The notes: generated by a model not told the origin, from the sequence alone. Shown: positions 3,843 to 21,267, counted from the first letter of the stretch. The stretch: DNA of 64,000 nucleotides from an uncultured delta proteobacterium (GCA_963771175.1 CAVYSY010000030.1:1-64000); one strand, 5' to 3'. Numbers and translations are program-made.

Positions 3843-5751
3843 TGCGCTGGGTCGTCGCCCTCATCGCTGGCCTGTTGTCGAGCGCCGCGGCCGCGGAGGC
3901 GACGGCGTCCAGGCAGACCTTGGTCTTCTACAACGCGCGCCTCGCGCTCCGGGACGATCGTCCGGCGGACGTGCTCAAGCTGTGGCTGCTTCGCAACAGC
4001 CTTCTCCAGCAGGGCGAGCGCCCGCGAGATGATGCTGAGTTCCGCTCGGTGGTGTGGGCAGCGCTCGGGAGCCTCGGGCTGTGCCAGGACGGGTTCGATG
4101 ATGACGAGCGAGAGGGCGCGGGCCTTTGGCCGCTCGCGCTGCACAACTGGTCGTCCACGGGCTCAGCAGAGGCCCGCCGCCCTCGATGCCCGCGCCGTGG
4201 GACGTCTTCGAGGTCGGGCGCCAGCAGCGGTCCATCTCGCTGCAGGACGTGCTCTCGGCGGAGGAGCTGCGCTCGGTGACCTTCTTCCGGACCGACTGCC
4301 TGCTGCCGGCCACCACGGCGCTGCGGTTCGGACGGACCCCGTTCCTCGACCTCAAGGATCGACTGAGCGCGGGCTGGCTCCTGCGCGACCTGCTGGTGAA
4401 GTCGCGCGCCACCCTGGTGCGGGAGAAGGTCCGGAACCTGTCGGTGGTGGAGGCGCGCATCTTCGATCTCGACCTGGTGCTCGCGGACCTGGAGGCGCGC
4501 AAGGCGCGTCGCAACGCTCGGAGTATCGCGCAGCAGGCCCGGGTGGCCGGCGTCTCCGCGGCCGGCGCGGCGGAGCTCCGGGGCAAGCTGGAGACCCTCC
4601 CCGAGGACTCGCCGCAGGCGGCGTTCCTTCGACGAAGCCTGACCTGGACCCCGCAGGAGTGGCTGGCGCTGAACCGGGAGCGGCGGCTGTTCCTGTTCGC
4701 CCGGGCGCAACCGCTGTCGAAGGAGCCGGACGCGCGCCAGAAGCTCATGCTCGGGATCATCGACGAGCTGCTCCGCCGCAAGGACGGGAAGGAGCTCGAG
4801 GCATGGATCGGTTTCGTGGGAGCGAGCGACTCGACGGAGCTGCGCGGCGCGCTGACCTCGGGCGAACGAGGCAAGCGCCTCCTCGAGCTCGATGAGAGCA
4901 CCGGGTTCCGCGAGCGCGCAGTCGTCGCGCTGCACCGGGGTGTGGGCTTCCTGGAGGCGGGAGAGCTGCAGGAGTCCCTGCGCTCGTTCGCGTACGCCAT
5001 GCAGCAGGCCGAGACCTCGCGCGAGGCGACCGTCACCCTGGGTCTCGCACGGCGGTGGCTGTCGTACGTGCTCTCCCGCTACGAGACCAACGACGAGGTC
5101 ATCGCCACGCTGAAGGCGCTGGTTCCGCGACAGGAGTACAACGCGGTCATCGAGGATCTGGTCTGGCGCGCAGCGCTGCGCGCCGATGATCGCTCGTTCG
5201 AGCGGATAACCCGGACTGCCCGGCGCGGTGGCTCCTTCGACGCGACGCTCGCGCGGCTCCAGCCGCTGTCGCAGGGCAAGCCGGGAGAGCTCGCGACGCG
5301 GCTGCGCGACGCCCTCCCCGAGGAGCCCTCGTCGGTGCTGAGGTTCGTGCGACAGCTCATCGAGAACATCGAAGCGGAAGATGCGGACGTCCGCCGGGCC
5401 AACGTTCCGACGCTCGAGCGCGTGCTCGAGGTGCTCCGGCCCCTGACCGTCGAATCCAGAACGGCGAAGTCGCAGAGCCGGACGGCCGACGAGCTCATGG
5501 AGCGGACCCAGTCGATCCTCGACGGCCTGAGTCACCTCGACGACTCGATGAGCGGGAACGCGCGGGCGCTGTCACCCACGCGCTCGACCTTTGCCGGGAG
5601 CATCCGCCTCGCGCCGGCCGATCCGCTGCCATGGCCCTTCAGGCCGCCCGAGCCCGAGGCGCCGTCCGTCTTCACGCCGATCGTGCTCGAGCCGGTGGAG
5701 TGGCGAGACGCGAAGGGCGCACTCGTCTTCGGGTGGAGGCTCACCGAATGA
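3842..5751 (+). CDS. Secreted alpha-helical (TPR-like) hypothetical protein (frameshift near 4150)
   Basis: TGATG coupling; signal peptide MRWVVALIAGLLSSAAAA; continues in ORF 4126..5751. Confidence 0.7.
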
Positions 5752-6395
5752 CCCCCGGGGAGCTTCGGCGCGAGCTGCGCCGGCGCAAGAAGGAGCTGCG
5801 CCGCTCGGCAGGGCTCATGAGGCGGGCGGCACGCGAGCGGATGGAACAGGTCCCATCCGTCCGACGCGAGAAGAGGCGGAGACGTATTCGTCGAGCGGTG
5901 ATGATCGCCGCGCTGCTGCTCCTGGCGATGTTGATGCGCTGTGAGTGCGAGCCGTCGCCGCCCGCGCCGCCACCGGAGCCGGTGGTGAAACCCGCGCCGG
6001 AGGTGAAGCCGAAGAAGCCCGCGCCGCCCGCGAACAAGCCGAAGGCATTCAGCGATCGGATGGAGCGCCAGCGGCGGGGGAGCTACCAGAACGAGGGGCA
6101 GACCTCGCCGAGCTGGCTGGACGACTTCCGCCTTCAGGTCGCGGCGCGCAGCCCGCGCCTGGCCCAGTGCTTCAGTGGGACCGATCGACCCGGGGCTCTG
6201 CGCTGGACGGCCGCGGTGAACGCCGCGAGCGGCTCCGTCTCCGACCATGCGCTCGAGCTCGTGGGAATGGGCGGCGAGCTGAGCGGGAAGCAACGCGACT
6301 GCGTCCTGGGCGTCCTCTCCAGCCCGGGCTACCGGCTGAAGCCCGAGCAGAAGCAGGACCTGCCCAGTCGGGTCAGCATCGTCATCGAGTTCTGA
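5748..6395 (+). CDS. Membrane-anchored TonB/AgmX-like protein (TM helix, Pro/Lys linker, C-terminal domain)
   Basis: ATGA overlap; basic N-terminus, TM helix, PPAPPPEPVVKPAPEVKPKKP linker, C-terminal RLAQCF...CVLGVL..RVSIVIEF. Confidence 0.6.
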   Translation: MTPGELRRELRRRKKELRRSAGLMRRAARERMEQVPSVRREKRRRRIRRAVMIAALLLLAMLMRCECEPSPPAPPPEPVVKPAPEVKPKKPAPPANKPKAFSDRMERQRRGSYQNEGQTSPSWLDDFRLQVAARSPRLAQCFSGTDRPGALRWTAAVNAASGSVSDHALELVGMGGELSGKQRDCVLGVLSSPGYRLKPEQKQDLPSRVSIVIEF

Positions 6396-6434
6396 CGAGG
6401 GGCTCGAATCGGAGCAGCCGCGACTCGCCGACCC

Positions 6435-7021
6435 AGCAGGTGCGGAGGAGGCGAGCGTGGCGCTTGAAGCAGCGGTCAGCAAGGAGCCGATGAAGGAGAG
6501 GACGTCGGGAGTGGACTGGGCGGAGGTGCTCAGGAGGACGTTCGACGTCGACGTATGGGCCTGCGTGAGGTGTGGAGGCAGGCGGAGGCTCTTGGCTTAC
6601 GTGAAGGAAGCGGGAGTGGCCCCGCCGCTGTCCGATCCACGTGGGACTACGTCAGGAAGTCGTAGCCCACCACGGAACGAAGCTGGTTGAGCGCCACGGA
6701 GGGCGGCAAGGCCTGCATCAGCGGATCCCTCGCCCACCGCGCCACCGGGTTGCGGAGGTACCGGATGGACCCCGCTCGCACGCTCAGCTCGGAAATGTGT
6801 GCCGTGCGAGGTTGGCAGCAAGCCGGAGTCGTGCGAGCGATTCTGGAGCACCTGGACTTGCCCACTGCTGGCAGCACCGCCAGGGCCGACGTGTGCCTCC
6901 TGGGGCTGCACTCTGCGTGCTCCGGCATGGCTCACTTCTCTTCGGCTCCCCTCAGCACCCTTCCCCTGCCTCTCTGCCCCATCCCCTGCCCTCAACCGTT
7001 CCCCCATTTCTCTTATGCGCT
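6435..7021 (+). mobile_element. IS91-family transposase 3' remnant plus element end, interrupted by a foreign fragment
   Basis: Translates DWAEVLRRTFDVDVWACVRCGGRRRLLAYVKEAG ... VRAILEHLDLPTAG (CxxC tail typical of IS91-like transposases); ends in CCCATTTCTCTTATGC. Confidence 0.65.
6647..6820 (-). pseudogene. C-terminal fragment resembling an FAD-dependent monooxygenase
   Basis: QPRTAHISELSVRAGSIRYLRNPVARWARDPLMQALPP...stop, embedded in the IS91 remnant. Confidence 0.4.
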
Positions 7022-7209
7022 GGACCTCACGCTCGCCCGGGAGTAGCGCCGGGGCTCGGCCCCTCCTGTCGGGAAGTCGGTTGCGGCCTCACCCTCGCGG
7101 GCTTCGTACGCCCAGACGATGCGCGTGAGGGCGCAGGGGCCCGCCCTTTCCCCGTCCCACCCCCCACTGGGCCTCTTCGGCCCGTGTGGAACCCCGGAGG
7201 AAGCCTGTC

Positions 7210-8017
7210 ATGTCGAGAGCCTTCAGAGCCCCTGGAGTCGCGGCCCTCGTGTTGGCGCTGTTCGCCACCGCGGCCTGGGCCGTCCCCCCGCCCAATGACG
7301 ACATCACCGGGGCGACGCTCATCCCGAGTGTCCCGTTCACCACCACGCAGGACACCCGCGAGGCCACCGTCGCTCCGGATGACCCCCAGTGCTCCGGACA
7401 GTCGGCCACCGTCTGGTACGTGTTCACCCCGACCACCGATGTCACGTTGCGCGCCCATACGTTCGGGAGCAACTACGACGCCGCCCTCTCGGTCTACACC
7501 GGGAGCCCCGGGCAACCTGACGCAGATTGGCTGCAACGATGACTCGATCGGCCTTCAGTCGCAGGTCATCTTCACCGCCCAGGCCGGCGTCACGTACTAC
7601 TTCATGGTGAGCGGCTTCGATGGGGTTGGCGGCGGAGACCTGGTCTTCACGCTCGAGGAGTTCACCCCGCTCACCTTCGAATTGGATGTCAATCCCAGGG
7701 GCACGGTGTCGCCCCGTCGATGGCGTCGTGACGATCAGCGGCACGGTCACCTGCAACAAGCCCGCGTCCGTCTCCATCTCCATCTCCGGGACACAGCGCG
7801 CCGGCCGGCTGCTCATCCGGGGAGTTCCGGCGTCTTCCTGACCTGCGACGGCGTGACGCCCTGGAGCACGACCTTCACGGGCTTCAACGGTCGCTTCACC
7901 GCCGGACGCATCCAGGTGACCGCCACCGGCAGCGCCTTCTCCGAGAGCACGGGAGAGTTCCTGGAGGACTCGGAGACCCGGACCGTCCAGCTCACCGGGG
8001 CGAAGACCCTTCGCTGA
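7210..8017 (+). CDS. Secreted protein with PPC-like and DUF6299-like beta-sandwich domains (about 3 frameshifts)
   Basis: Signal peptide, then PPNDD..TVWY.FT..GSNYD..LSVYTG..CNDD..AGVTYYFMV and ISGTVTCNKP; pieces lie in three frames. Confidence 0.65.
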
Positions 8018-8120
8018 GCTTCCAGCGATTGACGGTGCGACAGGCCCCGCCGAGACTGCCCGAGGATCGGCGTCATCTCGGAGGGGAGTACCTTGCGCAC
8101 CGTCATCCTCAGCTCCCCCA

Positions 8121-8294
8121 AGCAGGTGCGGAGGAGGCGAGCGTGGCGCTTGAAGCAGCGGTCAGCAAGGAGCCGATGAAGGAGAGGACGTCGGGAGTGG
8201 ACTGGGCGGAGGTGCTCAGGAGGACGTTCGACTTCGACGTATTGTCTGCCCCATTCCCCTGCCCTCAACCGTTCCCCCATTTCTCTTATGCGCT
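8121..8294 (+). mobile_element. Second IS91-like remnant (near-identical to 6435-6556 joined to 6973-7021)
   Basis: Direct comparison: about 122 bp of transposase tail fused to the about 50 bp end motif. Confidence 0.75.
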
Positions 8295-8437
8295 CGTGGT
8301 GATGCACGACGTGGCGCTCGCGCGGGCCTTGGAGGTGGTGCTGGACCAGGGCCACCTCGTGGAATGGGCCCTCCCGCTCAGGTGCTGGATGCCCCCCAGC
8401 ACGAGGCCACGCGCCGGTTGCTCGCCCAGGCACACGG

Positions 8438-9350
8438 TCACCTGGGAGCGGCATTGAGGCGGCGGTAGTAGATATCGAAGTCGCCGCCCGAGTCGTCCGA
8501 CCAGACGAGGTGCGCCCGCGAGCCATTGCTCGCGGTCGCATACTCGAAGGACGTGCCCGGCGTACCGCTCAGGTTCTCGATGGGGCCCAGCTTCGGCCCG
8601 GCCTTCCGGGTGGCCCGGGAGTAGATGTCGAAGTCCGTGAAGCTCCCCTCAGCCAGAAGACCCGGACCCCAGAGCCCGCCCGAACGAGCTGCGGCGCGAA
8701 GGAGCCGCCCGGGCTTTCACTCACGTTCACGGGGGCGAGGAACGTCTCTCCCCGATCGAAGCTCTGGGTGAGCAGGATCTCCTGCCGGCCCTCCGCGAAC
8801 GAGGCTGTCGCGAGATAGACACGGTTGCCTCGGACCAGCAGCGGGGTGGGCGCGCCCGTGAGGCCCAGCGATTCGCTGAGGTTCACGGCGGGTTCGAACG
8901 TGGCGCCCTCGTCCAGGCTCCTCGCATGGAACACACCTCCGCCCGCCGGCCAGGTCACGTGGACGGCGTCCCCCTCCAGCGCGATGTCGAACCCGGAGGC
9001 GACGTCGGCACGAGGCCCACTGAGGAGGCGGGCGTCCTCGAAGCTCGTCCCCCCGTTGGGGCTTCGCCGGTAGAAGAGCGCGGGATCATCCGCGGAGCTA
9101 CTGTCGTCCCAGATGACATGCACCGTCTCGCCCCGAGCCGCGATCCTCGCGGGCCCGAACAGGGTGGTGCCCGGGGTGAGATCGAGGATGGAGCCGAAGC
9201 TCCTGCCGTAATCATGGCTCGCCCGGAACAGGACGTCTCCCCGCTCGTTTCCGACCGACCTCCGCCACCTCCTCACGAGCGTGAGTGAGAAGACAGTGAG
9301 GTCGTGAAGGCGGCTTGCGCCATCGGGCTCGGAGGTGGCGGAGGTGTCTC
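8438..9350 (-). pseudogene. BNR/Asp-box (sialidase-like beta-propeller) protein, apparently 5'-truncated and frameshifted
   Basis: Asp-boxes SHDYGRSF, SPNGGTSF, SLDEGATF, SFDRGETF; last blade HLVWSDDSGGDFDIYYRR in another frame; no clear start or signal peptide. Confidence 0.6.
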
Positions 9351-9351
9351 C

Positions 9352-9383
9352 GAATCCACCCTTACAGGAAGTCTCTTATGCGC
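9352..9383 (+). repeat. Degenerate IS91-like end motif
   Basis: TCCACCCTTACAGGAAGTCTCTTATGCGC shares TCTCTTATGCGC with the copies ending at 7021 and 8294. Confidence 0.45.
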
Positions 9384-9439
9384 ACGACAGGGGCGCACCG
9401 GAACCCGGCGCGCCCCCATGCTTCATGCTTCACCCGTGC

Positions 9440-10792
9440 TCACGGAGGAGCCGGGAAGCAGCCACCGTCGTACAGCGCCCTGCTGCCGACGTTGGTGTTC
9501 ATCGGGCTCGGCTTGGGCGACTGCACCGTCGAGGGGGACTCACCATTGGGGCAGTTGCCGCTCGCGGGCTTGCAGCGCGAGGAGCCACTCTTGCGCATGG
9601 TGAAGTGCAGGTGCGAATTGCCGCCGGCGCTGCCGCTCTGACCCACGTAGCCGATGACGGTCTGGTCGGTGACGCCCGTGCCACTGGTGAAGTTGCCGTA
9701 GCCCGACAGGTGCGCGTAGATGGTGGTCACGCCCGTGGTGCCGTGGACGATCTCGACGTAGGTGCCGTAGCCCGTCCCATCCGAGGTCGACTTCTTGTAC
9801 GCCGTGCCACCGGCGGCCGCGTACACCGGCTGGCCGGTGGAGTTGGTGGCGCCTCCGCAGCTCGAGTTGGAGAGGTTGAAGTCGACGGCGTAGTAATCGT
9901 TGTTGCAGTTACCGTGGTAGTAATTGCCCCAGAACGAGCCGACGCCACCCGCCATCCAATAGGTGCCCCAGGAGAAGGGCACGTTGAGGGCAATGGGCGT
10001 GTTGGCCGCGATGCTGCCGCTATCACTGCCGAACCACTGGGTGCACGGCGCCGCCGCCATGCTCTGCATCGGCAGCCGCAGGGGCTGGAGCGGAGCGGCC
10101 AGCACGGCCTTGTCGCGGCCCTGGATGGTCCCCAGGCTCGCCTGCTCCTCGGCCCGGGTGCGCATCGCATCGAGGATGGGCAGCGCCTCTTCCAGCGTCA
10201 CGCTGGTGGCGGGCAGGATCGAGACAGACAGCACTTTGTCCTGGCCCCAGGGCACCGCCATTTCCAGCGCCACGTCCATGCCCTGCATCATCCTGTAGGC
10301 CACACCCTCCCGCCGGGCGAGCTCATACACGAGCGGATTCAGCGAGTCCGCGGCGAGCGCCTGCATCTGCGCGCCCGAGCTGCGCGAGGCCTCCATGCGC
10401 GCCTGGGCCCACTGGGTCACCGTCTTGCCCTCCAGCGGCACGGCGATGATGTCCACCTTCACCCGCTCCGGCGACATGTAGTGGGCGGGGTCTCCCGTCT
10501 GGATGCGCGAATCGTAGTCCACGAGGGTGATCGGACCACCGGAGGCCAGCTCGGTGGGGACCACGGCGTACCAGCCCTTCGGCAGCTCCAGCACGACATC
10601 GTTGTGAGGGTTTGAAATCCGCTGCGGCCCCTCGACGTGGACGGCGCCCAGGCCGGCCTTCGCCGCCGCGCTCTCCGGCTGCTCCGCCTGGGTGGCCTCC
10701 TCGGCGGGACCACAACCCGTGCCCGCCAGCAGCCCCGTCGCCAAGACGCCACAGGTCACCAGCGCTCTGCTCTTTGCTCCCCTGTTTTTCAT
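9440..10792 (-). CDS. M23 family metallopeptidase lipoprotein (probable peptidoglycan hydrolase)
   Basis: Lipobox AGTGC; H...YAVDF, PVYAAAGG, GYGTYVEIVH, YAHL and HLHF motifs. Confidence 0.85.
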   Translation of the reverse strand: MKNRGAKSRALVTCGVLATGLLAGTGCGPAEEATQAEQPESAAAKAGLGAVHVEGPQRISNPHNDVVLELPKGWYAVVPTELASGGPITLVDYDSRIQTGDPAHYMSPERVKVDIIAVPLEGKTVTQWAQARMEASRSSGAQMQALAADSLNPLVYELARREGVAYRMMQGMDVALEMAVPWGQDKVLSVSILPATSVTLEEALPILDAMRTRAEEQASLGTIQGRDKAVLAAPLQPLRLPMQSMAAAPCTQWFGSDSGSIAANTPIALNVPFSWGTYWMAGGVGSFWGNYYHGNCNNDYYAVDFNLSNSSCGGATNSTGQPVYAAAGGTAYKKSTSDGTGYGTYVEIVHGTTGVTTIYAHLSGYGNFTSGTGVTDQTVIGYVGQSGSAGGNSHLHFTMRKSGSSRCKPASGNCPNGESPSTVQSPKPSPMNTNVGSRALYDGGCFPAPP

Positions 10793-10959
10793 GAATTCTC
10801 CCGATTACAACTTACGAGCGAGTTCACCGCATTGATGCGAATGCCAATTATCCTGGAAAATGAGAAATAGTCAAAATGTGGAAATTCAGGAGTCATCAGA
10901 GGCACACGCCAGCCGATGCCGCCGAGGAGGGGACAGTGCGTGTGAAAGGAGGGAGGGGC

Positions 10960-11076
10960 GAGCCCCTACGGCACCGCCACCGTCAGCGCAGGCTGGTCGG
11001 CGTGCTGGTCATCGGCTATTCCGGGCCGCGCCGCGTCTCCCCGGACGAGATGGCCCTGGCGCGCGCCTGCGCCAAC
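10960..11076 (+). pseudogene. GAF-domain-like fragment
   Basis: RLVGVLVIGYSGPRRVSPDEMALARACAN, fused directly to an IS91 tail. Confidence 0.4.
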
Positions 11077-11191
11077 TGGGCTTGCCCACGGCAGGTGCGA
11101 GCCTGACCCCGGCGCGAGGGCCACATAAGGCCGCGTGGTGTTGAGGCTTACGCCGCCACAGCCCACTGGCCCAAACCCATTTCTCTTATGC
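11077..11191 (+). mobile_element. IS91-like transposase extreme C-terminus plus end motif
   Basis: LGLPTAGASLTPARGPHKAAWC-stop followed by CCCATTTCTCTTATGC. Confidence 0.65.
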
Positions 11192-13120
11192 CCTGATGGA
11201 GCCGAAGGTCAGGACCTCGGCGGCTTCCTCCAGCGCCCAGGCCAGGTCTAGGAGCGTGCGTGTGAGGGTGGGCTCGCCGGCCTTTTCCGAGAGCCTTCGC
11301 ACCGACGCGGCGGTCTCCATTGGCCGCTCCACCGCGTCCCTCAGCACCTCTTGGATCTCTCGGATGACCTCCGCCAGCGGGAGTGTCCCGGCGTGCGCGA
11401 GCGCGGCCTCGTGGAGCTCCGCGATGGCGTGCCCCGCGCCGAGGACCGCGAGGCTTCCCGTGGGCATGTGCGCGCCGAGCTCCTTGGCTCGTCCGAGGTG
11501 GAGCGTCAACCGCAGGAGCTGCCGCGCGGACTGCGCGTGCCAATCCGCGGCCGTCGGCGTCCAGGTGCGCTGGATGAGGCGCCGCAAGTCCCGACGGAGG
11601 GCCTGGGCGGCCTCGAGCGCCTGCCGTTTGGCGCGGCGTGGGACGAGCATGAAGCTGCCGACCACCACCGTTGCCGCGATGATCAGCGCCAACGAGCCGC
11701 TCCACGCGGCGGAGGGGTCCACCACCGTCGGGAGGACGGCGACGCTCGCGAGCAGGAAGGACATGTTGTAGTCGATCGCCATCAAGCGCGTGCGCGTCGC
11801 CGCGCGGGCCAGTCCCCCCACCAGGAAGAAGGGCACCACCGACACCAACAGCTCCGGCAGCGTGGAGATGTGGGGCTGCAGCCACAAGCGATAGCCCAGG
11901 GCCGCGCAGGAGCCCGTGACAATGCCCGCCCACAGTTTGGGGGCGATGAGCTGGGGCACCGGCATGGTTCCCAGCACCATTGAGAAGATGCAGACGCCTA
12001 GCGCCACCAGCTCCGTGGCGGGCCGTGCGGACGCGTACGCCACCGCCGTGGCCGCGAAGGCCACCACCCCGGTGATGAGGCCGCTGCGAACCGCGAGTCG
12101 CCACTCGCGGTGCGGGGCCAGGTGGGCCACCCCTTCGTTGGACGCGCGTCCCGCGGCCGCCTCCGGCCTGGCGAAGAGCGCCTGCTCGGCGGTGATGAGC
12201 TGACCCACGGCCATGACGAATCGCCTCACGGTGGGGTCCGCTTCTTCCGCGCCCACCGTGAACTCGCGCCAGAGCGGGTCCGAGGGCGCTGTCGATCGCA
12301 GCTGCTCGGCCAGGCGCTCGAGGCGAGCCAGGAGCGCCTCCTCTACGGCCTGTCGTCCCTGCCGCACCCGCCCGCGCAGGACGAGGGCGCCAGACACCAC
12401 CGAGAGGGACGCCGCCACCAGTGCGTCGATCAGCGCCACGCGGCGGTAGCCCTCGATGGAGCCCGCGGTTGCCAGACGCGCGGAGGAATCCACGTCGCTG
12501 AGCTCCGAGAGGAGCCTCCGCTCCTCCTCGCTCGGGTCTCCCTCGTCGCGCAGGAGCCGGGCCGCCAGAGCGACCGCGTCCGCACCGAGGACGCGCGCGC
12601 GCTGGAAGAAGAGGGGAAGTGACTCCGCGGGGGTCAACAGCCCCGTCACCAGGGTGACGACGACCACGCCGATGAGCGTGCACTCCACGCGGGAGACGGC
12701 GGTCACGAGCGAGACGCCTCCATGGAGCACCGTGGGCAACACCACGATCGACGCCGTGAGCCCGGCCAGCAGCGCCCAATAGCCCTGGACCCCGCGCAGG
12801 ACGTGGTTCGTTCCCGTCATCGCGGCCATCCACCCGCCCATCAGCGCCAGCTGCACGTAGGGGCTGACCGGCAAGTGCACGAGGCCGAAGCCAACCCCCG
12901 CGCCCAGGAGCGTGCCGATGACACGGTAGAGCCCGCGCTCCAACATCACCCCCCGCCGAGGCTGTGCGACGACCCAGATGGGCATCGCCGCCCAGAACGC
13001 GTTGGGGATGCGCAGCCACGAGGCAATCGCGAAGGCAATCCATGCGGAGATCGACAGCCGCAGGGCCAGCCCCACCGCCGCGCGGTCCAACCCCAGGATG
13101 TTCCCTAGACGAGCAAGCAT
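11186..13120 (-). CDS. FUSC family (fusaric acid resistance/aromatic acid exporter) membrane protein
   Basis: ALRLSISAWIAFAIA..WAAMPIWVVAQP..G..LERGLYRVIGTLLGA; two hydrophobic halves. Confidence 0.85.
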   Translation of the reverse strand: MLARLGNILGLDRAAVGLALRLSISAWIAFAIASWLRIPNAFWAAMPIWVVAQPRRGVMLERGLYRVIGTLLGAGVGFGLVHLPVSPYVQLALMGGWMAAMTGTNHVLRGVQGYWALLAGLTASIVVLPTVLHGGVSLVTAVSRVECTLIGVVVVTLVTGLLTPAESLPLFFQRARVLGADAVALAARLLRDEGDPSEEERRLLSELSDVDSSARLATAGSIEGYRRVALIDALVAASLSVVSGALVLRGRVRQGRQAVEEALLARLERLAEQLRSTAPSDPLWREFTVGAEEADPTVRRFVMAVGQLITAEQALFARPEAAAGRASNEGVAHLAPHREWRLAVRSGLITGVVAFAATAVAYASARPATELVALGVCIFSMVLGTMPVPQLIAPKLWAGIVTGSCAALGYRLWLQPHISTLPELLVSVVPFFLVGGLARAATRTRLMAIDYNMSFLLASVAVLPTVVDPSAAWSGSLALIIAATVVVGSFMLVPRRAKRQALEAAQALRRDLRRLIQRTWTPTAADWHAQSARQLLRLTLHLGRAKELGAHMPTGSLAVLGAGHAIAELHEAALAHAGTLPLAEVIREIQEVLRDAVERPMETAASVRRLSEKAGEPTLTRTLLDLAWALEEAAEVLTFGSIRA

Positions 13121-13281
13121 GTCAGGCGCTCGGCGCCAGGTGCCACCAACGCCAATGTTTCTCTAGGGCGCGCCACGAGAAGGTGCAGCGCTTTGTGACT
13201 CGCCTGGCGCTGGCTCCAGCCCGATTCGACACTCGGGACCATCAGGTGGGCTCATGGTCCCGTCGTACTTCCTGCCTTCCG

Positions 13282-13308
13282 TTGGGCTTGCCCACGGCAG
13301 GTGCGAGC
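13282..13308 (+). repeat. Short IS91 transposase-tail copy
   Basis: TGGGCTTGCCCACGGCAGGTGCGAGCC matches 11077-11103. Confidence 0.6.
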
Positions 13309-13315
13309 CCACCAT

Positions 13316-14131
13316 TCAGAACGCGTAACGGGTGGACAGGGCCACCGAGCTGTACTGCTCGACCGCGGCGCCGCCCGCGGCCGAGAGTCCGGAGCCCTCG
13401 AACCGATCGAAGAAGGCCTGGTGGTCGAAGGCGAGCGCATAGCCCCAGCGTGAACCCGGAAGCTGGCCTTCGAGGCTGGCCAACGCCTTCGCTCCCCAGG
13501 ACGAGACGGACTGCTCGCCGAACAGCGCTCGCTCCTCCTTCCCAGGTGCCGCGAGGAAGATCGCCCCCGCGCGCACGCGCAGACTCGCCCAGCGCGGCAC
13601 CAGCACCACCCGTCCCTCGAGTGAGGCCTCCGGTGCGAGCTGACGGTTGCTCGACGGAAGCACCGGGTTGGTCGCCACCGTGAACGTCCGGTGGTGCACC
13701 CCGAGCGCGATCGCCACCTGCGGCTGAGCGAACGCCTGGCGAAACGCGTGGGCGTACACCAACGCGAGCCCGAAGCTCTGGTCGCTCGACCACTGCGCAC
13801 CGGCGCTGCCGACCCCGATGATGTGGGTCTGGACGAAGCCCCGACTGTAGCGACCCAGCAGACCGAGCCCGGCAAGTGGGCCTCGAACCTCACGGAACGG
13901 AAGCACGCGCGCTTCCACCCACGGGCCGAGATAGGGAGCACGGGTCTGGTACACGAGTGGCGTTCCATCGGCGGGGTGGCTCTTCTGCCCGCAGGCTGAA
14001 ACCCCGGGGCAGAAGCGGTACGTCCGCCAGAACGCCGCTGGCCCTGCTCGTACGTCGAGCAGCGCGAGCCCCTCCCCCTCTCCCGCCGAGGGCTCGACCG
14101 CGAGGGGGGTCGTCGCGGCGACCGGCGGCTC
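13316..14131 (-). pseudogene. Outer-membrane beta-barrel-like protein, 5'-truncated
   Basis: Amphipathic strands and C-terminal STRYAF; the 5' part is replaced by the duplicated segment 14132-14341. Confidence 0.55.
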
Positions 14132-14341
14132 GCCGAAGGCATTCAGCGAGCGGATGGGGCGCCAGCGGCGGGGAGCTACCAGAACGAGGCGCAGACCTCG
14201 CCGAGCTGGCTGGACGACTTCCGCCTTCAGGTCGCGGCGCGCAGCCCGCGCCTGGCCCAGTGCTTCAGGGGACCGAGCGACCCGGGGCCCTGCGCTGGAC
14301 GGCCGCGGTGAACGCCGCGAGCGGCTCCGTCTCCGACCATG
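14132..14341 (+). repeat. Diverged about 210 bp copy of the internal part (6038-6249) of the TonB-like gene
   Basis: Direct alignment shows high identity with a few substitutions and single-base deletions. Confidence 0.85.
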
Positions 14342-14352
14342 TTGAGAAGCGA

Positions 14353-15762
14353 TCAGCCTCCGCTGCGCGGAGACTTGTCGGTGCGGCCGTCGTCGTACAG
14401 CCCGGTCAGCCCCGTCACCTTGCCCGAGGCATCCTTCTCGATGCGGAAGCGAAGGATGTCCATGCCGTCGTCGAGCATGAGGGTGTCCGCCGTCATGGGG
14501 ACGGCCCGGATCCTTCTCTCGCTGTTCTGCCACTGGAGCCAGAGCGAGCCATTCTCGTAGATCAGCATGCGCGGCCCGTAGCTCCCCGCGAAGCTCTTCA
14601 GCACCTCGGCGGTCAGCGTCACCGGCCTGGCGAGCGCCTCCACCTTCTGGATGGACCACGCGAGCCGCCGCTTCCGCTCGTCGTCCTGGGCCTGGGACTG
14701 TAGCTTCTTCAGCGCATCCAGATGGGCGGTCTCGAGCGCCTTGTCCGCTGGCACCTGGATGTCCGGAGCAACGCCGGTGCCTTCCCAGTTGGTGCCGGTG
14801 ATGGGGTTCACCGCGCGGCCGAAGGGAATGAACACCAGCAGGTGCACGTCGGAAAGGAATTGGGCATCGACTGGATGGGCCCCGCCGCCGGTCGTCTCAC
14901 CGACAAGGGTCGCTCGCTTGAGGTGCTTCAGGTCGTAGGCGAACTCCTCGGCCGCGGAGAATGTGCGCTGGCTGGTGAGGACATAGACGGGAACTCCGGT
15001 CATCCGCTGGCCCGTCACGTGTGCCGAGGTCCAGAACTGCTGCGTGGTATTCCCCTTGCGGATGTAGAAGCCGTTGAGGTGCGTGGGCTTCTCGAAAAAG
15101 TAGCTGGTGATGAGCTGGACCATCGACGGCTCGCCACCGCCGTTCTTGCGCAGGTCGATGATCACCGCATCGGAGTTGGCCAGGAAGTTCATGGCGGCGA
15201 TGGCGGTCTCGCCCGCCAGCTCGGCGCCGATGAAGCCGCGCAGGTCCAGGTACCCCACGTTCCCCGCGAGCCGCTCCACCTTCTCGAAGCCGAAGTTCAT
15301 GGACGCCAACTCGCGGCGGAGCTGCTCGCGAGCGGCCGGATCGCCTGGCCCATTGGGGTCCATCGCCGGGGGCATCGAGGTCGCGTAGTGGATGCCCAGG
15401 TGCTTGTCCTTGCTCACCTCGCGGAGATCGCGGGTCAGCGCTTCAGCGAGCTCGGCCGAGTGGGTGAGCTTGTCGTAGGCGCCCGCCTTCAGCTTCTGGC
15501 GGATGCTCGCCTCCATCTTCTTGGCCACCTCCGGGAAGACATAGGTCTCGTTCAGTGCCGCCGAGACGCGATCCACGATCTTCGCGCGCGCCGCCGTGTC
15601 CACAGGCTCGCCGCGGCCGGGCCCCGGCTGGGCCCGCGCGGTGCCCGAGACCAGCAGGAGCGCCGCCGCCAACAGCACGGCCATCCCTCCGCGCGACACG
15701 CGCCCATCTCCGTTCTCACTGCTTGCCGTCATCACTGGAGTCCCCTCCGGGTTGGAGTTCAT
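14353..15762 (-). CDS. S41 family peptidase (IRBP-like), secreted
   Basis: DKHLGI, GNVGYLDLRGF, IIDLRKNGGG, TFSAAEEFAY, GETTGGGAHP, WEGTGVAPDI motifs. The start may be a downstream ATG. Confidence 0.9.
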   Translation of the reverse strand: MNSNPEGTPVMTASSENGDGRVSRGGMAVLLAAALLLVSGTARAQPGPGRGEPVDTAARAKIVDRVSAALNETYVFPEVAKKMEASIRQKLKAGAYDKLTHSAELAEALTRDLREVSKDKHLGIHYATSMPPAMDPNGPGDPAAREQLRRELASMNFGFEKVERLAGNVGYLDLRGFIGAELAGETAIAAMNFLANSDAVIIDLRKNGGGEPSMVQLITSYFFEKPTHLNGFYIRKGNTTQQFWTSAHVTGQRMTGVPVYVLTSQRTFSAAEEFAYDLKHLKRATLVGETTGGGAHPVDAQFLSDVHLLVFIPFGRAVNPITGTNWEGTGVAPDIQVPADKALETAHLDALKKLQSQAQDDERKRRLAWSIQKVEALARPVTLTAEVLKSFAGSYGPRMLIYENGSLWLQWQNSERRIRAVPMTADTLMLDDGMDILRFRIEKDASGKVTGLTGLYDDGRTDKSPRSGG

Positions 15763-15958
15763 CTTTGAACCCTATCCAATGGCGTTCACTGTGCAGGTTC
15801 GACCGCAAGAGCGGCAAGCGCAGTCGGAGCACTTCGTACGGGATCCGATCAGCGGCTTTCCCGCCTTCCGCTCCGGGGTGTGCCGCGTCGAGCCTCTGGC
15901 CGGGAGCTGAGGTTCACGCGGCCTCGTGGGTTCGCCTCACGGACTTGCACGAGTCACC

Positions 15959-16110
15959 TCAGCTGACGGTGTAGGCGACCTCCACGCCGAGAACGGTGAA
16001 GGCGCTCGTGTTCGTCTCGCCGTTCGAGGAGGCCGCCCCGCGCACGAAGGCGAAGTGCCAGAAGGGGTTGCTGCCGAACGAGTTGGCGGTGCTCGTGGGA
16101 CGGAGCTGCT
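15959..16110 (-). pseudogene. C-terminal fragment of an unknown beta-rich protein
   Basis: PTSTANSFGSNPFWHFAFVRG...VLGVEVAYTVS-stop with strong GC3 codon bias and no start. Confidence 0.35.
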
Positions 16111-16154
16111 GTCCGACTACGACTGGACCCCCTCAACAGGGCCCCCGCCGGCCA

Positions 16155-16778
16155 TCAGGGCCCTCTCGACGCCTGCTTCACCAGATGACCCGTGAAGTTG
16201 TACTCCAGCAGGTGGCGCTTCTGGTTTCCATCGCTGGTAGCGAACGTCTGGACGTAGTCCCCCTGATTCAGGAAGAGCGTGACGCTGTACACCCCAGTGT
16301 CCCGGTCCACGTGGCCCTGCCCGCTCATGGCGCGGCCCTTGGCCACCCCGTTCTTCAGCACATGGACGAACACATCGTTCGCGGTCGCGCCGTAGTAATA
16401 GGCATCCTTCACGAACGAGACGTTGAAGAAGTACAGGCCGGTACACGGAGCGATGAAGGTGCCCCCTCCCGCCCCCCAGCCTCCGCCCTCCAGGGTGTGG
16501 GCCGTCGGGTAGCTCAGCAGGGCGAGCCCCCCTTCCGAGACGTGGCCATTCCCACTCACACTGAAGGCAACGAGGCCTGACTCCGGGCAACGGGCGCCGG
16601 CCAACAGCTCGGCCTCCCGGGCGGTGGTGGGGTCCACCGTCTTGTATTGAGCGAAGAGCACCCCCTCCTTCTGGGGACCGGCCCGCCAGGCGGAGGCGAC
16701 GGGCTCCGCGGCCCACGCGGAGCCCGGGGTGAGGATGGAGACCAGGCCGGACAGCAGCATGAGCCACGACTTCTTCAT
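16155..16778 (-). CDS. Secreted C1q-domain protein
   Basis: Signal peptide; VAFSV..G.F.AP..GLYFF..V.V.KNG..L.LNQGD.V..FTGHLV matches the globular C1q pattern. Confidence 0.8.
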   Translation of the reverse strand: MKKSWLMLLSGLVSILTPGSAWAAEPVASAWRAGPQKEGVLFAQYKTVDPTTAREAELLAGARCPESGLVAFSVSGNGHVSEGGLALLSYPTAHTLEGGGWGAGGGTFIAPCTGLYFFNVSFVKDAYYYGATANDVFVHVLKNGVAKGRAMSGQGHVDRDTGVYSVTLFLNQGDYVQTFATSDGNQKRHLLEYNFTGHLVKQASRGP

Positions 16779-16959
16779 GAGAGCCTCCCTGCCCGGGTCT
16801 TCCGGGGGTTCGGGGAGGCTTGGCCTGGGAGGCCCCCACCACAACCTGTCCCCAGGGGAAGACAGGCCGTCGTTTACCCGACCGCTCGCGCTGTCAATCG
16901 AAGGCGCGAGGGCCCGCGACTGGTTCACACAGCTCGAGGAAATCGACGGGGGTGTCCCC

Positions 16960-17000
16960 GGTTTCCACGCGTGGAAACCCCAGGGCTCGACGCGTGGAAA
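16960..17000. promoter_or_regulatory. Perfect 20-bp palindrome with a repeated half-site; candidate operator between divergent genes
   Basis: GGTTTCCACGCGTGGAAACC at 16960-16979 and ACGCGTGGAAA at 16990-17000. Confidence 0.5.
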
Positions 17001-17173
17001 GTGCCGCGACGCGGAGGGGCCGGCGAGAACGCGCCCGCCCGTGGAGGCGGCCCCCCTCGTGTTCCGCGCTGAGAACGCGCGGCTCGACGGACTGGTACGT
17101 CGCTTGCTCGAGGCCCAAGCCCGAGACCTGCAAGGGGTCTCGGCAAGAACTCCCACCGCCACACCTCCCATTC

Positions 17174-18298
17174 ATGAGCCCGTCCCTCCAGATTCCGTTC
17201 TTCCGTTGGCTGTCTCCCCTTTCGAAGCTGGGGCTGCTGACGGCCCTGATGACCACGGCGACCAGCCACGCCTCGACGCCCGTGGTGGATCAAGCGAACG
17301 AGCCCTATTCGCTCTACTCCGTCCAGCTCTACACGGGAGCGGTGCCCGGCGGACAGACCTTCACGGTGGGCAAGGCCGGGACGCTCTCGCGGGTCTCGGT
17401 GTATGTGCAGAAGCAGTGCCTGCCAGACTGCCCGGACATGCTGGTGCAGTTCCGCTCGACCGCGGGCCAGGTGCTCGCCAGCGGCACGGTGAGCCAGGCC
17501 ATGATTCCTACCGGCAGCTACAACTGGATCGACGCCGGGTTCTCGCAGCCGCTCAGCGTCCTTCCGGGCGAGCAGTACGCCATCGTGGTCCAGAACGCCC
17601 AGCCGTACTTCTCGGGGGGGTATGACTGGAAGTACGAGGCCAACTCCTCCGTCGACTCCTATCCTGGCGGGATGCTGTTCCAGGTCGGGTACAACTCCCA
17701 CCCCGCGTATGATCTGTACTTCCGGACCTACGTGACCCCCAACGAGGTGCACAACTGCGCCGAGGTTCGCGCGCAGAACCCCGCGGCCCCGGATGGCACC
17801 TACCCGCTCACGCTCGGTGGCAAGCAGGTGGAGGTGTACTGCCACGACATGGCCGGCACGCCCCGTGAGTACCTCACGCTGAAGACGGGGAGCACCACCA
17901 ACTACTCCTACTACGGCCAGGGGCCGAACACGTCCGCCGGCGGGCAGACGACGTGGTTCACCAAGGTGCGCCTCGACCCCGCGACGCTCACGCTCGCGCT
18001 CGACGACACCACCTTCTCCACGAGCCAGGGCTGGATGAGCTTCGGAAGCACCTTCCTCTACACCAGCCCGCTGGGGAGCGCGGGCGACTGCGTGACCGCC
18101 TATTCCCAGACGGGCCGGAGCAACATCGACCTGACGGGCACGCCCTTCGACATCGCGCCCGGCCAGTTCCAGGTCGAGGGGTGGGTGCCGGCGGGCTCGA
18201 CCACCTACAGCGGCAGCCAGATCGTCAACCTCATGGGAGGAGGCTACTGCGGCGCCAACCACGACCCCGACAACCGCCTGCAGCTCACCTTGCAGTAG
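17174..18298 (+). CDS. Secreted protein with a C-terminal GON domain
   Basis: CAEVR..DGTY.L..VYCHDM..PREYLTL..T.FTKVRLD..D.TFS..AGDC..IDL.GT.F..GGYCG matches the GON domain of ADAMTS9/20. Confidence 0.8.
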   Translation: MSPSLQIPFFRWLSPLSKLGLLTALMTTATSHASTPVVDQANEPYSLYSVQLYTGAVPGGQTFTVGKAGTLSRVSVYVQKQCLPDCPDMLVQFRSTAGQVLASGTVSQAMIPTGSYNWIDAGFSQPLSVLPGEQYAIVVQNAQPYFSGGYDWKYEANSSVDSYPGGMLFQVGYNSHPAYDLYFRTYVTPNEVHNCAEVRAQNPAAPDGTYPLTLGGKQVEVYCHDMAGTPREYLTLKTGSTTNYSYYGQGPNTSAGGQTTWFTKVRLDPATLTLALDDTTFSTSQGWMSFGSTFLYTSPLGSAGDCVTAYSQTGRSNIDLTGTPFDIAPGQFQVEGWVPAGSTTYSGSQIVNLMGGGYCGANHDPDNRLQLTLQ

Positions 18299-18359
18299 TC
18301 ACCCCTGGAGCGCCGCTGCCATCCTTCACCGGCAGCGGAGAGACCACGAGGAAGGCCCC

Positions 18360-18553
18360 CACCGGAGGCTGGGCGTGCAGACCCTGCAGCCCACCCGGGG
18401 GCCTCTCGGTAGAGGTCGTTGAGGTTGTGGACGAGCGCCCAGAGGTCTTCCACCTCCCAGCACTCCGACGTCTCCCCGGCGAGGATGTGAAGTTCCAGGG
18501 CGGGGCGCTCGCGCACGTCGACGACCTTGAAGCGGTGCGCGGCACCGCCCATG
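18360..18553 (-). pseudogene. Fragment of a hypothetical gene, cut at a hairpin repeat
   Basis: RFKVVDVRERPALELHILAG..WEVEDLWALVHNLNDLYR has coding-like bias but no start. Confidence 0.35.
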
Positions 18554-18621
18554 GCCGGGGAAGGTGTCAAAGGATTCGTTCCGACGCCTCGCGCCCTACG
18601 AATCGTCTGACACCTTCGGCC
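18554..18621. repeat. Hairpin repeat R1 (GAAGGTGTCAAAGGATTCGT-N18-ACGAATCGTCTGACACCTTC)
   Basis: Imperfect inverted repeat; 68 bp identical to 21457-21524. Confidence 0.85.
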
Positions 18622-18640
18622 CCTTCGGCCAGCCCTCGTC

Positions 18641-18668
18641 TTCAACCGTCCTCCCATCTTTCTTATGC
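18641..18668 (+). repeat. IS91-like end motif
   Basis: TTCAACCGTCCTCCCATCTTTCTTATGC versus CTCAACCGTTCCCCCATTTCTCTTATGC at 6991 and 8264. Confidence 0.6.
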
Positions 18669-18705
18669 TTTGGCGTGTCCATGAGGTTTTGGACCTCGCG
18701 AGAGG

Positions 18706-20205
18706 TCAAGACATCGCCCGGGTCAGGTCATGAATCTGAAGCGCCTCCTGGGGCGAGCCCAGCCCATCATCCGCGTAGCGCAGACAGAAGTAGAAGAGCG
18801 CCCAGGACTGAGAGGCCTCTGGCGACAACGGAAAGCTCATTCTCGCGAGCGCGCCCACGGCCATGCCCAGGAGCTTGCTATCGAGAGCGAGCGCATAGGC
18901 CATACCGTGATGCATGAAATACTGCGGCGCGCCGCGTGGGACCTTCTCATGCACGGCCACGCGGTAGGTGAAACCGCGGCTCTCCTCCACCTCCAGGTCG
19001 AGATTCTGGTTGGGCGGAATCATCGGCGTGCCCACGGCGGTATGCGGGCCTCCCCTGCCCCAGCCCCGCTGCGCCAGGCCCTCGTAGTTCCTCCCCCACC
19101 GCCAGTGCAGGTGCAGGCAGTCGTGGACGCACACGGGAGCCATGGTGATGCGTTCGAGTGGCAAGTTGCGGAACTGCGCCTGCTGGCGGATCCGTAGCGG
19201 CGCGATCATGGTCGGCGCGATGTGGAGGTTGTCGAAGGCGCCCTGGCGCTCCACTTTGTGCACCGTGCGCGGAATGGGGTAGGGGTGCGAAGGGTAGACG
19301 CTCACCGCGCCGCCGATGCTGCGCTCCGCGAGCGAGGGAGACACCATGCGGTAGCTCCCGCTGGCAACGTGGAGCTTGTAGTAGTCGAACAGCGCGGACC
19401 AGAAGGGCTTCTCCAGGAAGAACTGGTTCGTGTCGGTGAAGAGGGAGAGGCTCTGGCGGCGACCCATTCCATCACTCTGGTCAGAGTGCAGACCGTGCGC
19501 GGGCGCGAGCTGCATGTCGGTCGTCTCGGGCCGCATGACGGTGAGCGCCGCGTCGAAGCCCTCCAGGTCCTGGTTGGAGACCAGCATGAGGTGCGGGCGG
19601 ATCCGCGACATGGTCGCAACGCCCAGCGGTTCGAAGTCAGCGCGCGGGGCGCACAGCGCGAACTCGACGAAGACGAGGATGCGCAGCGGAGAGGCCGGCA
19701 GCTTGAGCTGCTTGCCGCTCGGGACGTAGACGGGCCGCCCCGGGGGCGGTGGGGCGCCCGGCTCGGGCATGAGCTTGTCGCTCTCCAGCGCCTTGCGGTG
19801 CATGGGCCCGAGCTGCCCGCCGGGGTTCAGCTCGTAGCCGAAGACGAGCAGGCTCCCGGCCTCGAGCGTCGTGGGCAACCACCCGTGAGTGAGGGTGGGG
19901 ATCTCCCCGTGTGTCGCCGAGAACCGCCGCAAGAGGAAGTCCGGCTCGAGCCTCAGCGTGAAGCTCTTCTGCTTGTAGCGCACGGTGAGCGGGTGCCACT
20001 CGAGCCGCTCGCACACGCGCAGCCTGCCGCACGTCGCGTCGGGCACGTCACAGGCCAGGCCGCTCACATGGTCGAGCCTGGGGCGCTGCCAGGACCAGAG
20101 CCGGGTGCGGCCGCCCCCCGCGGAGCCGTTGCCCTCGCCCGCCACCAGCCCGGGCAGGGCCGTGCCCAGAAGTGTCTGGCGGAGCAGTGTCTTGAGATTA
20201 GGCAT
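18706..20205 (-). CDS. Hypothetical protein (499 aa)
   Basis: Long ORF with coding bias; contains FDNLHIAP and CVHDCLHLHWRW; overlaps the upstream gene. Confidence 0.7.
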   Translation of the reverse strand: MPNLKTLLRQTLLGTALPGLVAGEGNGSAGGGRTRLWSWQRPRLDHVSGLACDVPDATCGRLRVCERLEWHPLTVRYKQKSFTLRLEPDFLLRRFSATHGEIPTLTHGWLPTTLEAGSLLVFGYELNPGGQLGPMHRKALESDKLMPEPGAPPPPGRPVYVPSGKQLKLPASPLRILVFVEFALCAPRADFEPLGVATMSRIRPHLMLVSNQDLEGFDAALTVMRPETTDMQLAPAHGLHSDQSDGMGRRQSLSLFTDTNQFFLEKPFWSALFDYYKLHVASGSYRMVSPSLAERSIGGAVSVYPSHPYPIPRTVHKVERQGAFDNLHIAPTMIAPLRIRQQAQFRNLPLERITMAPVCVHDCLHLHWRWGRNYEGLAQRGWGRGGPHTAVGTPMIPPNQNLDLEVEESRGFTYRVAVHEKVPRGAPQYFMHHGMAYALALDSKLLGMAVGALARMSFPLSPEASQSWALFYFCLRYADDGLGSPQEALQIHDLTRAMS

Positions 20206-20998
20206 TCTTCAACTCCCAGGAGTCCATGGCCGCCAGCAGCACCTTGTCCTCCTCTTCATTCCCGGGCAGGCCCATCAAGGTAAACTGCTCATGCACCGGG
20301 CAGAGCAGGGAGATCTCCCCCTTCTCATCCGTGACCAGCGTGAGCGCGTTCCCGGCCGCGTCAGCGACCCGCAGGGGGACGCCGGAAAGGGGGCGCTCCT
20401 CGTCCGCCTCGTCCACCACCTGGATGACGGAGTACGAGAGCACGGGGCGCAGCTCGAGCTTGAACCTCGGCGGCTGCTCCCAAGGGAGGAGTTCGCAGCG
20501 CGAACCCACGAGCTCGAGCTCGACCGCCATGGGCTCGGCTGGCAAGGCTCGCGTCCCTTCGAACCACACTCCGTCCACGGACTCTTTCTCCGCCGTGCTG
20601 TCATTGCACTGACGACGACGCCGGGTCGTGAGCTCGAGCGAGACCTCCGCCCACAGGGAGTCCTCCTCCGGCTTGATCGCGATGCTGACGTTCACCGTCG
20701 CCGAGAGGACAGCAGTGACCTCTTCGACCGAGTGCACATCGTCCCCCGCCTCCGGGTGGCTCTGAACGAACTGCTCGAACCAATAGGAGAACTCCAACGG
20801 GACCTCCCTTTCGAGATTCCTGTAGCCGTATTGCGGTGAGCCCATGCAGCGGAGCAGGGGACGGGAGAGGCGGAGGCTGCTCTTCCATTCAGTGTGGACG
20901 AGCTCACCCCCGACGTAGCCGCTGCTCTTGTGATGGTGGGAATGCTCGATGCTGAAGGCACACTCCCACTTGCCCACGGCCTTCCAGGAATCGTTCAT
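20198..20998 (-). CDS. Hypothetical protein with a C-terminal carboxypeptidase-regulatory-like beta segment
   Basis: ATG 20998; IQVVDE..RPLSGVPLRV..TLVTDEKGEI. Confidence 0.6.
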   Translation of the reverse strand: MNDSWKAVGKWECAFSIEHSHHHKSSGYVGGELVHTEWKSSLRLSRPLLRCMGSPQYGYRNLEREVPLEFSYWFEQFVQSHPEAGDDVHSVEEVTAVLSATVNVSIAIKPEEDSLWAEVSLELTTRRRRQCNDSTAEKESVDGVWFEGTRALPAEPMAVELELVGSRCELLPWEQPPRFKLELRPVLSYSVIQVVDEADEERPLSGVPLRVADAAGNALTLVTDEKGEISLLCPVHEQFTLMGLPGNEEEDKVLLAAMDSWELKNA

Positions 20999-21169
20999 GT
21001 GGACGCCCGAGGTTGAACTTCGAGGAAAGCCCATCACGACCTGGTATTGCCTGGCCAGCGAAAGTGAGTACACGGAGCCACGGCCCGCTCCTCCTCCAGG
21101 GAGAGTGAGAGAAGCAGCGCCAGCAACCGCAGGAGAAACCGTTCGGCCTCCGCCAGGCGGGCAAAGGCC

Positions 21170-21267
21170 ACCAGCGTGGTGCTGTCCCACTCGGCGGTGC
21201 CGTCCGCCTCGGGCGCATCCGTGGGCATCTCGTACGCCCGAGCCTCGATGCGCTCGATGGGCACCAC
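21170..21267 (-). pseudogene. N-terminal fragment of a mandelate racemase/enolase superfamily gene
   Basis: VPIERIEARAYEMPTDAPEADGTAEWDSTTLV, then similarity ends abruptly. Confidence 0.55.

Follow-up and report, generated by a model that had tools for sequence, protein, structure and literature searches.

The 64,000-nt stretch of DNA analyzed here (GCA_963771175.1 CAVYSY010000030.1:1-64000, hereafter the window) comes from the draft genome of an uncultured delta proteobacterium (9.83 Mb, 58 contigs, 81.66% complete, 4.52% contamination; hereafter the host genome), and was compared with the rest of that genome and with 17 relatives of the same genus. It includes a strain-specific region of ~24 kb that contains an array of short, same-strand remnants of a rolling-circle insertion sequence (IS), interspersed with genes and gene scraps, as well as IS21 and IS5-type elements (Table 1). 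The element is of a known kind, an ISCR/IS91-type rolling-circle insertion sequence with a mini derivative; its identity is firmly established, as is the existence of the array, and the proposal that the array arose by gene capture is plausible but unproven. Nine relatives are 92-96% identical to the window up to 6397-6410, ~15 nt past the stop codon of the last conserved gene, and beyond that point each of them differs from the window and mostly from the others; by these alignments, 6393-6410 is a genus-wide hypervariable border, with or without an IS91 piece following. Near 30724 synteny is restored, with a different part of the chromosome.

Table 1. Features of the array and its surroundings (window coordinates; mini positions refer to the 487-nt mini-element; ORF, open reading frame)
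Feature	Coordinates	Strand	Composition or basis
Last conserved gene before the variable region	5631-6395	+	identity to nine relatives
Unit A	6432-7018	+	mini 1-185 (6432-6616), foreign insert (6617-6816), mini 174-228 (6817-6871), mini 327-487 (6859-7018)
Gene scrap inside unit A	6653-6811	-	3'-terminal 159 nt (stop codon included) of a gene conserved in relatives
End motif YTCTTATGC	7010-7018, 8283-8291, 9373-9381, 11183-11191, 18660-18668	+	pattern search
Frameshifted ORF, pseudogene	7210-8017	+	signal-peptide-like start; frame changes
Unit B	8111-8291	+	mini 1-127 joined directly to 441-487; canonical left boundary CTCCC/CCAAGCAGG
ABC-transporter ATPase 3' fragment	8292-8445	+	84% identity to C38:18596-18754
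BNR-like beta-propeller fragment	8441-9276	-	N-terminally truncated, frameshifted; BNR E = 0.003, sub-threshold (Pfam)
Relic C	9355-9381	+	~last 12 nt certain (9370-9381, TCTCTTATGCGC); weak likeness upstream
M23 peptidase gene	9443-10792	-	open frame of 450 residues; Pfam E = 5e-15
Unit D	11073-11191	+	mini 206-311 (transposase C-terminus with stop) plus last 16 nt; left edge TGGGCTTGCCC
FUSC-family membrane protein gene	11189-13120	-	Pfam E = 2e-77
D'	13283-13309	+	tail scrap, mini 210-236; left edge as in unit D; no end motif
Unassigned ORF ending ...RYAF	13319-14131	-	no Pfam or NCBIfam match
Partial copy of conserved gene 6020-6249	14114-14341	+	212 nt, 96.7%
S41 peptidase gene	14356-15762	-	Pfam E = 1e-24
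C1q-domain ORF	16158-17171	-	Pfam E = 2e-5
GON-domain ORF	16820-18295	+	Pfam E = 9e-25
5' scrap, from the start codon, of a small multi-copy gene family	18396-18556	-	host-genome comparison
Hairpin repeat of ~65 nt, unrelated to the IS	18554-18621		45 genome copies
Relic E	18627-18668	+	~last 27-42 nt of the end (TCAACCGTCCTCCCATCTTTCTTATGC)
IS21-family element (Mu-transposase C-terminal domain and IstB)	25373-28133		multi-copy in relatives
DDE element (DUF772/DDE_Tnp_1)	28283-30020		multi-copy in relatives

A pattern search for YTCTTATGC finds exactly five matches in the window, all on the plus strand, compared with 0.12 expected by chance (the mean of 100 shuffles, none of which reached five), and only 12 in the whole genome. 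The five same-strand end motifs and the common orientation of the units described by a first-pass annotation of the sequence are thus confirmed; of the end positions it gave, the last two (11191 and 18668) are right and the first three lie 2-3 nt too high. Transposase C-terminal coding sequence precedes three of the ends (6432-6616 with 6817-6871; 8111-8244; 11073-11178), and the extra tail piece noted there is also real, 13283-13309 being identical over its 27 nt to 11077-11103. A census counts ~20 right ends of the family in the host genome, in the variants TCCTATGC or TCTTATGC. Pairwise alignments among 20 such ends all halt at +0 to +4 past ...TATGC, and six intact tails align up to ...CTCAACAGGCCTTCAATCCGTCCTATGC, which in the full copy lies ~290 nt past the transposase stop, the flanks differing 2-4 nt beyond; intact copies elsewhere in the genome terminate in ...CTCAAC..TCCTATGC. 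Because alignments among right ends stop at this point, YTCTTATGC can securely be assigned, on alignment grounds, as the right, oriIS-side terminus of an ISCR/IS91-family element, as had been proposed from the motif and the tail pieces. A string at 21787-21804 resembles the end at 15 of 18 bases, closes with CCCATGC and has no CTCAAC box; this candidate for a sixth end at ~21804 is probably not an end and is not counted.

The tetranucleotides flanking the five window ends are CGCT, CGCT, CGCA, CCCT and CTTT, and the bases next to oriIS ends read C-N-Y-N. At one clean junction, in the complete genome of the relative G008, the element ends in ...TTCTTATA and the target begins CGCG; by analogy with this junction, the last bases of the window elements would be ...TCTTATG. 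DNA folding of the ends places hairpins only 100-200 nt from the terminus and yields no clear origin hairpin at oriIS, the last ~80 nt being pyrimidine-rich and unpaired.

No full transposase is present in the window, as the first-pass annotation had stated, nor in the whole of its 295-kb contig: tblastn matches there are confined to 6415-6603 and 8113-8253, and blastn with full elements returns tail pieces only, with no left-end sequence of the element. A full copy lies on contig C25 (39811-41373) and encodes a 521-residue ORF in which Pfam recognizes Y2_Tnp (E = 2.5e-28) and Zn_Tnp_IS91 (E = 1.3e-16) only, and no helicase domain. Against the NCBIfam models this protein scores 296 bits for ISCR clade Ia (cut-off 925 bits) and 108 bits for IS91, both under the cut-offs; it is therefore best placed, judging by these scores, as a distant ISCR/IS91 relative and not as any named ISCR. 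A tblastn search of the host genome with the same ORF gives 35 high-scoring segment pairs, comprising one full, one nearly full and ~30 fragmentary copies. The search for a full transposase ending in the motif, which the first-pass annotation had recommended, succeeds in part: there are the 12 motif copies, and the intact copy ends in TCCTATGC, but no full-length copy ending exactly in TCTTATGC was found, the longest copies of that type detected starting at residue 359 or 429.

The start near residue 429 marks a 487-nt non-autonomous mini-element, whose left edge falls at an internal site of the transposase gene; nine of the 35 segment pairs start at residues 421-431. Alignment of 17 copies from the host genome and the relatives gives a sharp common left edge, (C/T/G)TCC/CCCAAGCAGG, with unrelated flanks upstream, and the same left-edge sequence occurs inside the full transposase gene, where it reads GTCC. 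Two relatives have complete 487-nt minis, from this left edge through ...TCTCTTATGC, and minis are abundant genus-wide. We sampled 56 tail-bearing loci, picked from the copy listing in the 17 relatives and belonging to four of them with complete genomes; every copy starts at mini positions 1-11 and half (28/56) reach position 432 or further, while 23 keep the left 92-228 nt only, with no ori-like motif within 900 nt; loss of the right end is therefore common in the genus. Right-end-only relics also recur in the host genome, at lengths of ~36, 110 and 145 nt. The stops of the left-only copies cluster at mini positions 115-127 and 152-180, which may be a hot spot of insertion or breakage. Units B (8244) and A (6616) of the window break in these same two zones, and in the relative G001 a DDE IS is inserted beside GTTC at one such internal break site.

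The units of the window are decayed copies of this mini. The expectation that they are non-autonomous is supported, whereas the description of them as ori-only does not stand, since they are broken copies of an element that has a fixed left boundary. Units A and B are mutual closest relatives (98%, versus at most 94% to other copies), and D and D' are 100% identical over 27 nt and share an odd left edge. Relic C is the weakest of the five, comprising ~12 nt and, beyond them, 34 nt at 71% identity. Only ~12-47 nt of the terminus remain in four of the five ends. Since IS91 is reported to require the last 82 bp of its end (PMC13181058), by analogy only unit A could still act as an origin, and most of the window ends would now be dead relics. 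The features that characterize mobile fragments of IS801 (an intact right end, continuous sequence and a tetranucleotide at the left edge) are combined in the 487-nt class and in none of the five window units, because these either carry internal deletions or insertions or are reduced to 12-47 nt.

Same-orientation arrays are also seen elsewhere in the genus. Among the 132 tail copies in the matches listed for the 17 relatives, 23 of 29 neighbor pairs within 15 kb share their orientation (binomial p = 0.002, although the pairs are not independent), as do all seven pairs of neighboring ends in the host genome. A replichore explanation of this orientation is rejected, because the copies listed in G008 alternate along the chromosome. 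In five of the eight relatives' arrays that were fetched, neighboring copies are 97-99.8% identical over ~480-500 nt only, and in three cases a mini corresponds to the 3' portion of a longer copy lying on its ter side. In G001 a 2.1-kb unit present three times is a mini carrying an ordinary DDE IS, with inverted repeats and target duplication.

The cleanest module found with both seams at element boundaries is a foreign segment in the G008 array L041 (G008:C1:10883000-10901000, locus coordinates 9877-15120). It starts at the exact ori junction of a long copy with a 354-nt scrap of a gene, X, and finishes at the exact left edge of a sister mini with a 571-nt scrap of another gene, Y, and the two flanking copies are 99.8% identical. 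Both genes are intact elsewhere in G008, to which the scraps are only 95.6-95.8% identical, and X is uninterrupted in three other species, Y in G015. The orthologue of the window's GON gene in G003 is followed, 160 nt downstream and in the same orientation, by a complete mini from another subfamily, an arrangement suggestive of capture, without a shared junction.

The contents of the array are mixed in origin, and comparison with the genus and with the host genome supports the view that they are strain-specific, foreign or relocated DNA. The first-pass cargo labels survive for M23, FUSC, S41, C1q and GON, which Pfam recognizes, and for the BNR propeller at sub-threshold level only; "PPC/DUF6299" has no Pfam support, the frameshifted ORF at 7210-8017 having neither a Pfam match nor a DNA relative in the 17 genus genomes. 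The scrap inside unit A matches one locus each in G001 and G015 at 89-90% identity, and no second copy of it was found in the host genome (82% complete). The ABC ATPase fragment opens at the base directly after the unit B motif, so that the sequence switches at 8291/8292; its paralogue on contig C38 carries LSGGQ and Walker B motifs. The M23 and FUSC genes look intact and are strain-specific. The closest genus relative of the M23 protein is 48% identical. The stop codon of the FUSC gene (11186-11188) falls within the unit D end motif; at E <= 1e-20 the gene is missing from 16 of the 17 relatives, and a protein scan of 185,579 species genomes found no close relative.

The last module of the array is itself a patchwork, within which patch boundaries occur without any IS end. 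The scrap at 14114-14341 is 90-96% identical to the relatives' orthologues, copies of the S41 gene 85-94% identical lie at unrelated loci in relatives, and the C1q patch (16143-16852) has 86% identity to relatives. The orthologue of the GON patch (17092-18301) adjoins, in G001 and G003, a block that now lies on host contig C57, where the gene is missing; since its ancestral neighbor block sits on C57, the GON gene has been relocated from that locus. A 45-nt palindromic promoter piece (TTCCACGCGTGGAA type) is found both at window 16961-17130, where it is inverted, and at C57:184190-184240, and the relatives' GON start codon ATG reads AAG in the window. The hairpin repeat next to relic E is also present at 21457-21524 and 23128-23180 and in dense runs on contigs C49, C44 and C28, and it adjoins members of a small (~100 residues) gene family on their upstream side; Rfam has no family matching it and gives nothing in 6000-24000. 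In the resumed syntenic part, a large minus-strand ORF (33501-37004) carries AMP-binding, PP-binding and terminal reductase domains (carboxylate-reductase or non-ribosomal peptide synthetase-like).

The reading that we favor, with a probability of about 0.5, is that early-terminated copying multiplies the minis, whose insertions fall close by on the same strand, and that rearrangement, in a dispensable region rich in IS, turned their termini into seams. Rolling-circle copying from oriIS would stop early at the ter-like site inside the transposase gene and so produce minis, which would be moved in trans and would tend to land nearby on the same strand, building arrays of one orientation within dispensable DNA. 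The window copies, with the sister pairs A/B and D/D', would later have been broken by internal deletions and insertions, and their termini would have become the seams of a strain-specific patchwork, mainly as rearrangements took place at the copies or from one copy to another; these may have been ori-adjacent deletions, recombination between copies, or the import or relocation of copy-bounded segments, and some modules (M23, FUSC) may derive from one-ended capture. Transposition in vivo is reported for IS801 right-end fragments measuring 229, 360 and 679 nt, the left bound of the mobile fragments being a ter-like tetranucleotide, and most genomic fragments were judged to be reorganizations (PMC3189936). 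The mini pattern would likewise fit the copying scheme described for IS91, from oriIS to terIS (PMC13181058).

Several observations weigh against this account. The right terminus is kept exactly, and in one orientation, in five of the six IS-derived pieces, which is tidier than random decay predicts; the lone foreign gene FUSC lies exactly between the unit D end and D', as expected of a capture module; and recombination offers no simple explanation for the near-identical copies around foreign DNA in relatives. No empty site retaining both flanks came to light when the arrays of eight relatives were compared with the host genome, a comparison that failed because the arrays lie in non-shared DNA, and simple insertion of a mini is therefore inferred only. 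The left ends of the four longest copies have no common boundary by which terIS could be defined, and the assembly is a draft in which 6300-6550, covered by a metagenome contig, is the sole junction with independent coverage.

The first-pass annotation proposed instead a rolling-circle gene-capture array, in which ori-only units repeatedly deposited modules at one locus. Cargo and closing end would be mobilized together and each unit inserted at the ori junction of the previous one, head to tail, either by one-ended transposition reading through a weak left boundary or by transfer from one ori nick site to the next; we regard this as a tentative possibility, at clearly less than even odds. Its best support comes from the FUSC gene, foreign to the genus and bounded by the unit D end and D', and from the G008 segment, which runs exactly from an ori junction to a mini left boundary between copies 99.8% identical. 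The retention of five exact termini in one orientation, the closing of two different cargoes by one truncated D-type unit and the position of the G003 mini point the same way, as does the claimed switch of sequence at the motif, which holds where testable (at 8291/8292, where the ABC fragment begins, and at the G008 junction). Precedents exist: one-ended transposition at 1-14% and trans-mobilized mini-IS are described as established for IS91 and IS1294 (PMC13181058), IS801 is reported to have captured 290-1431 nt in vivo (PMC3189936), and cargo circles borne by ISCR/IS91 have been reported (PMC5737581, PMC7758954). However, a ter-side flank shared with a second locus, with a differing ori-side flank, is the signature of one-ended capture, and setting aside longer transposase-bearing copies no such flank contiguous with the element was found at any of the 20 host-genome ends (5 kb upstream) or of the 56 relatives' loci (3 kb upstream), a test of limited power. 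Nor does any module recur in any search made: no second copy of a window module with the element was found in the 17 relatives, in the host genome or, for FUSC, in the scan of species genomes. Repeated deposition by ori-only units gains no support from these searches. Much of the cargo, moreover, consists of scraps and pseudogenes cut inside genes, the last module holds boundaries without an IS end, four of the five ends are of at most 47 nt, right-end loss is common (the 23 left-only copies of 56), and the left border is hypervariable in all nine relatives with or without an IS91 piece. A further proposal, that same-orientation ori ends serve as start and stop sites, so that an ori-to-ori stretch is an excisable single-strand circle re-inserting at resident ori junctions, is in our estimate a long shot; if true, it would describe an integron-like cassette platform working on HUH chemistry and building accessory islands from foreign and relocated segments.

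It is unlikely that the minis independently entered the intergenic gaps of a pre-existing, horizontally acquired run of mostly minus-strand genes and then decayed there, their ends having no bearing on the arrival of the genes. The BNR, M23, FUSC, unassigned, S41 and C1q frames are indeed all on the minus strand, three right ends lie 0-60 nt past a stop codon, and the genus does contain minis with both canonical boundaries; yet beyond unit B there is no 5' half to match the ABC fragment at 8292, the BNR gene is cut at its 5' end beside relic C, the unit flanks are unrelated scraps and not the halves of one sequence, and the idea that right ends generally favor gene 3' ends was rejected for the host genome, where right ends elsewhere have no such bias. 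That the array is an artefact, a chimeric contig joined at short repeats, is very improbable even for an incomplete draft of 58 contigs with some contamination and with repeats at the seams, given that these repeats are short (27-126 nt) and partly diverged, that both outer flanks come from the same genus, that a metagenome contig carries the same junction across 6300-6550, and that complete single-contig relatives have the same architecture. Public sequencing runs hold at most 0.16 of the sampled words. From four metagenome runs came low-depth contigs covering pieces of the first junction and of the M23 module, with three weak joints (24-36 nt sides, 90% likeness) from which no conclusion is drawn on strains, habitats or circles. 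The M23 pieces (9421-11077) come from low-depth contigs in four runs of different coded studies, with 0-4 mismatches each and none across an IS end.

Should the arrays be no more than graveyards, they represent an ordinary case of an ISCR/IS91 relative with a successful mini in a large environmental genome. The genus pattern is useful in any case, with its abundant minis, local same-orientation sisters and foreign segments bounded exactly by termini: it suggests that ISCR/IS91-type elements mark, and perhaps make, the seams of the accessory genome in bacteria with very large genomes, and the arrays are a natural resource beyond clinical resistance plasmids in which to test how ISCR-type elements put gene arrays together. 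Genome size and G+C content prompt the guess, and no more than that, that the host is a myxobacterium. Among the matches listed for literature pairing IS91 with myxobacterial names there is no mention of "IS91".

Among known systems, a close likeness is to the IS801 minis of Pseudomonas syringae as described in PMC3189936, which are also right-end-anchored, non-autonomous, bounded on the left by an internal tetranucleotide-like edge and moved in trans, and truncated copies of which also lie beside accessory genes; the caution voiced there, that genomic fragments may be reorganizations, applies here too. Unlike IS801, the present mini forms one size class (487 nt), with many copies per genome genus-wide and in same-orientation arrays, and is known from sequence alone, and unlike the mobile IS801 fragments all five window copies have internal deletions or insertions or consist of the end only. 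The ISCR1 and ISCR2 units, in the accounts of PMC13393415 and PMC7758954, share with the array an oriIS downstream of the gene, variable DNA abutting the ori end, and complete and truncated copies in one orientation around cargo, and it is on the NCBIfam ISCR clade Ia model that the present transposase scores best; the host here, however, is an environmental bacterium with a large genome, and the cargo does not consist of resistance genes and has no integron or 3'-CS context. IS91 itself, as portrayed in PMC13181058, has an ori end that differs from its ter end and a tetranucleotide beside oriIS, given there as CTTG, GTTC or GTCC; the present element may be alike in both respects, its tetranucleotides mostly lacking the conserved T at position 2; subterminal palindromes, unlike in IS91, are not evident in the last 80 nt, and no counterpart of the IS91 orf121 was noted, no search having been aimed at it. 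Helitrons are eukaryotic rolling-circle transposons that capture gene fragments and encode a Rep-helicase protein. The Helitron-like character suggested by the first-pass annotation is a likeness of working only, seen in the non-autonomous copies, in the gene fragment that unit A contains and in the orderly 3' terminus; with a bacterial host and a transposase of Zn_Tnp_IS91 and Y2_Tnp domains only, the present element is not a member of that group, but a distant relative of the ISCR/IS91 elements.

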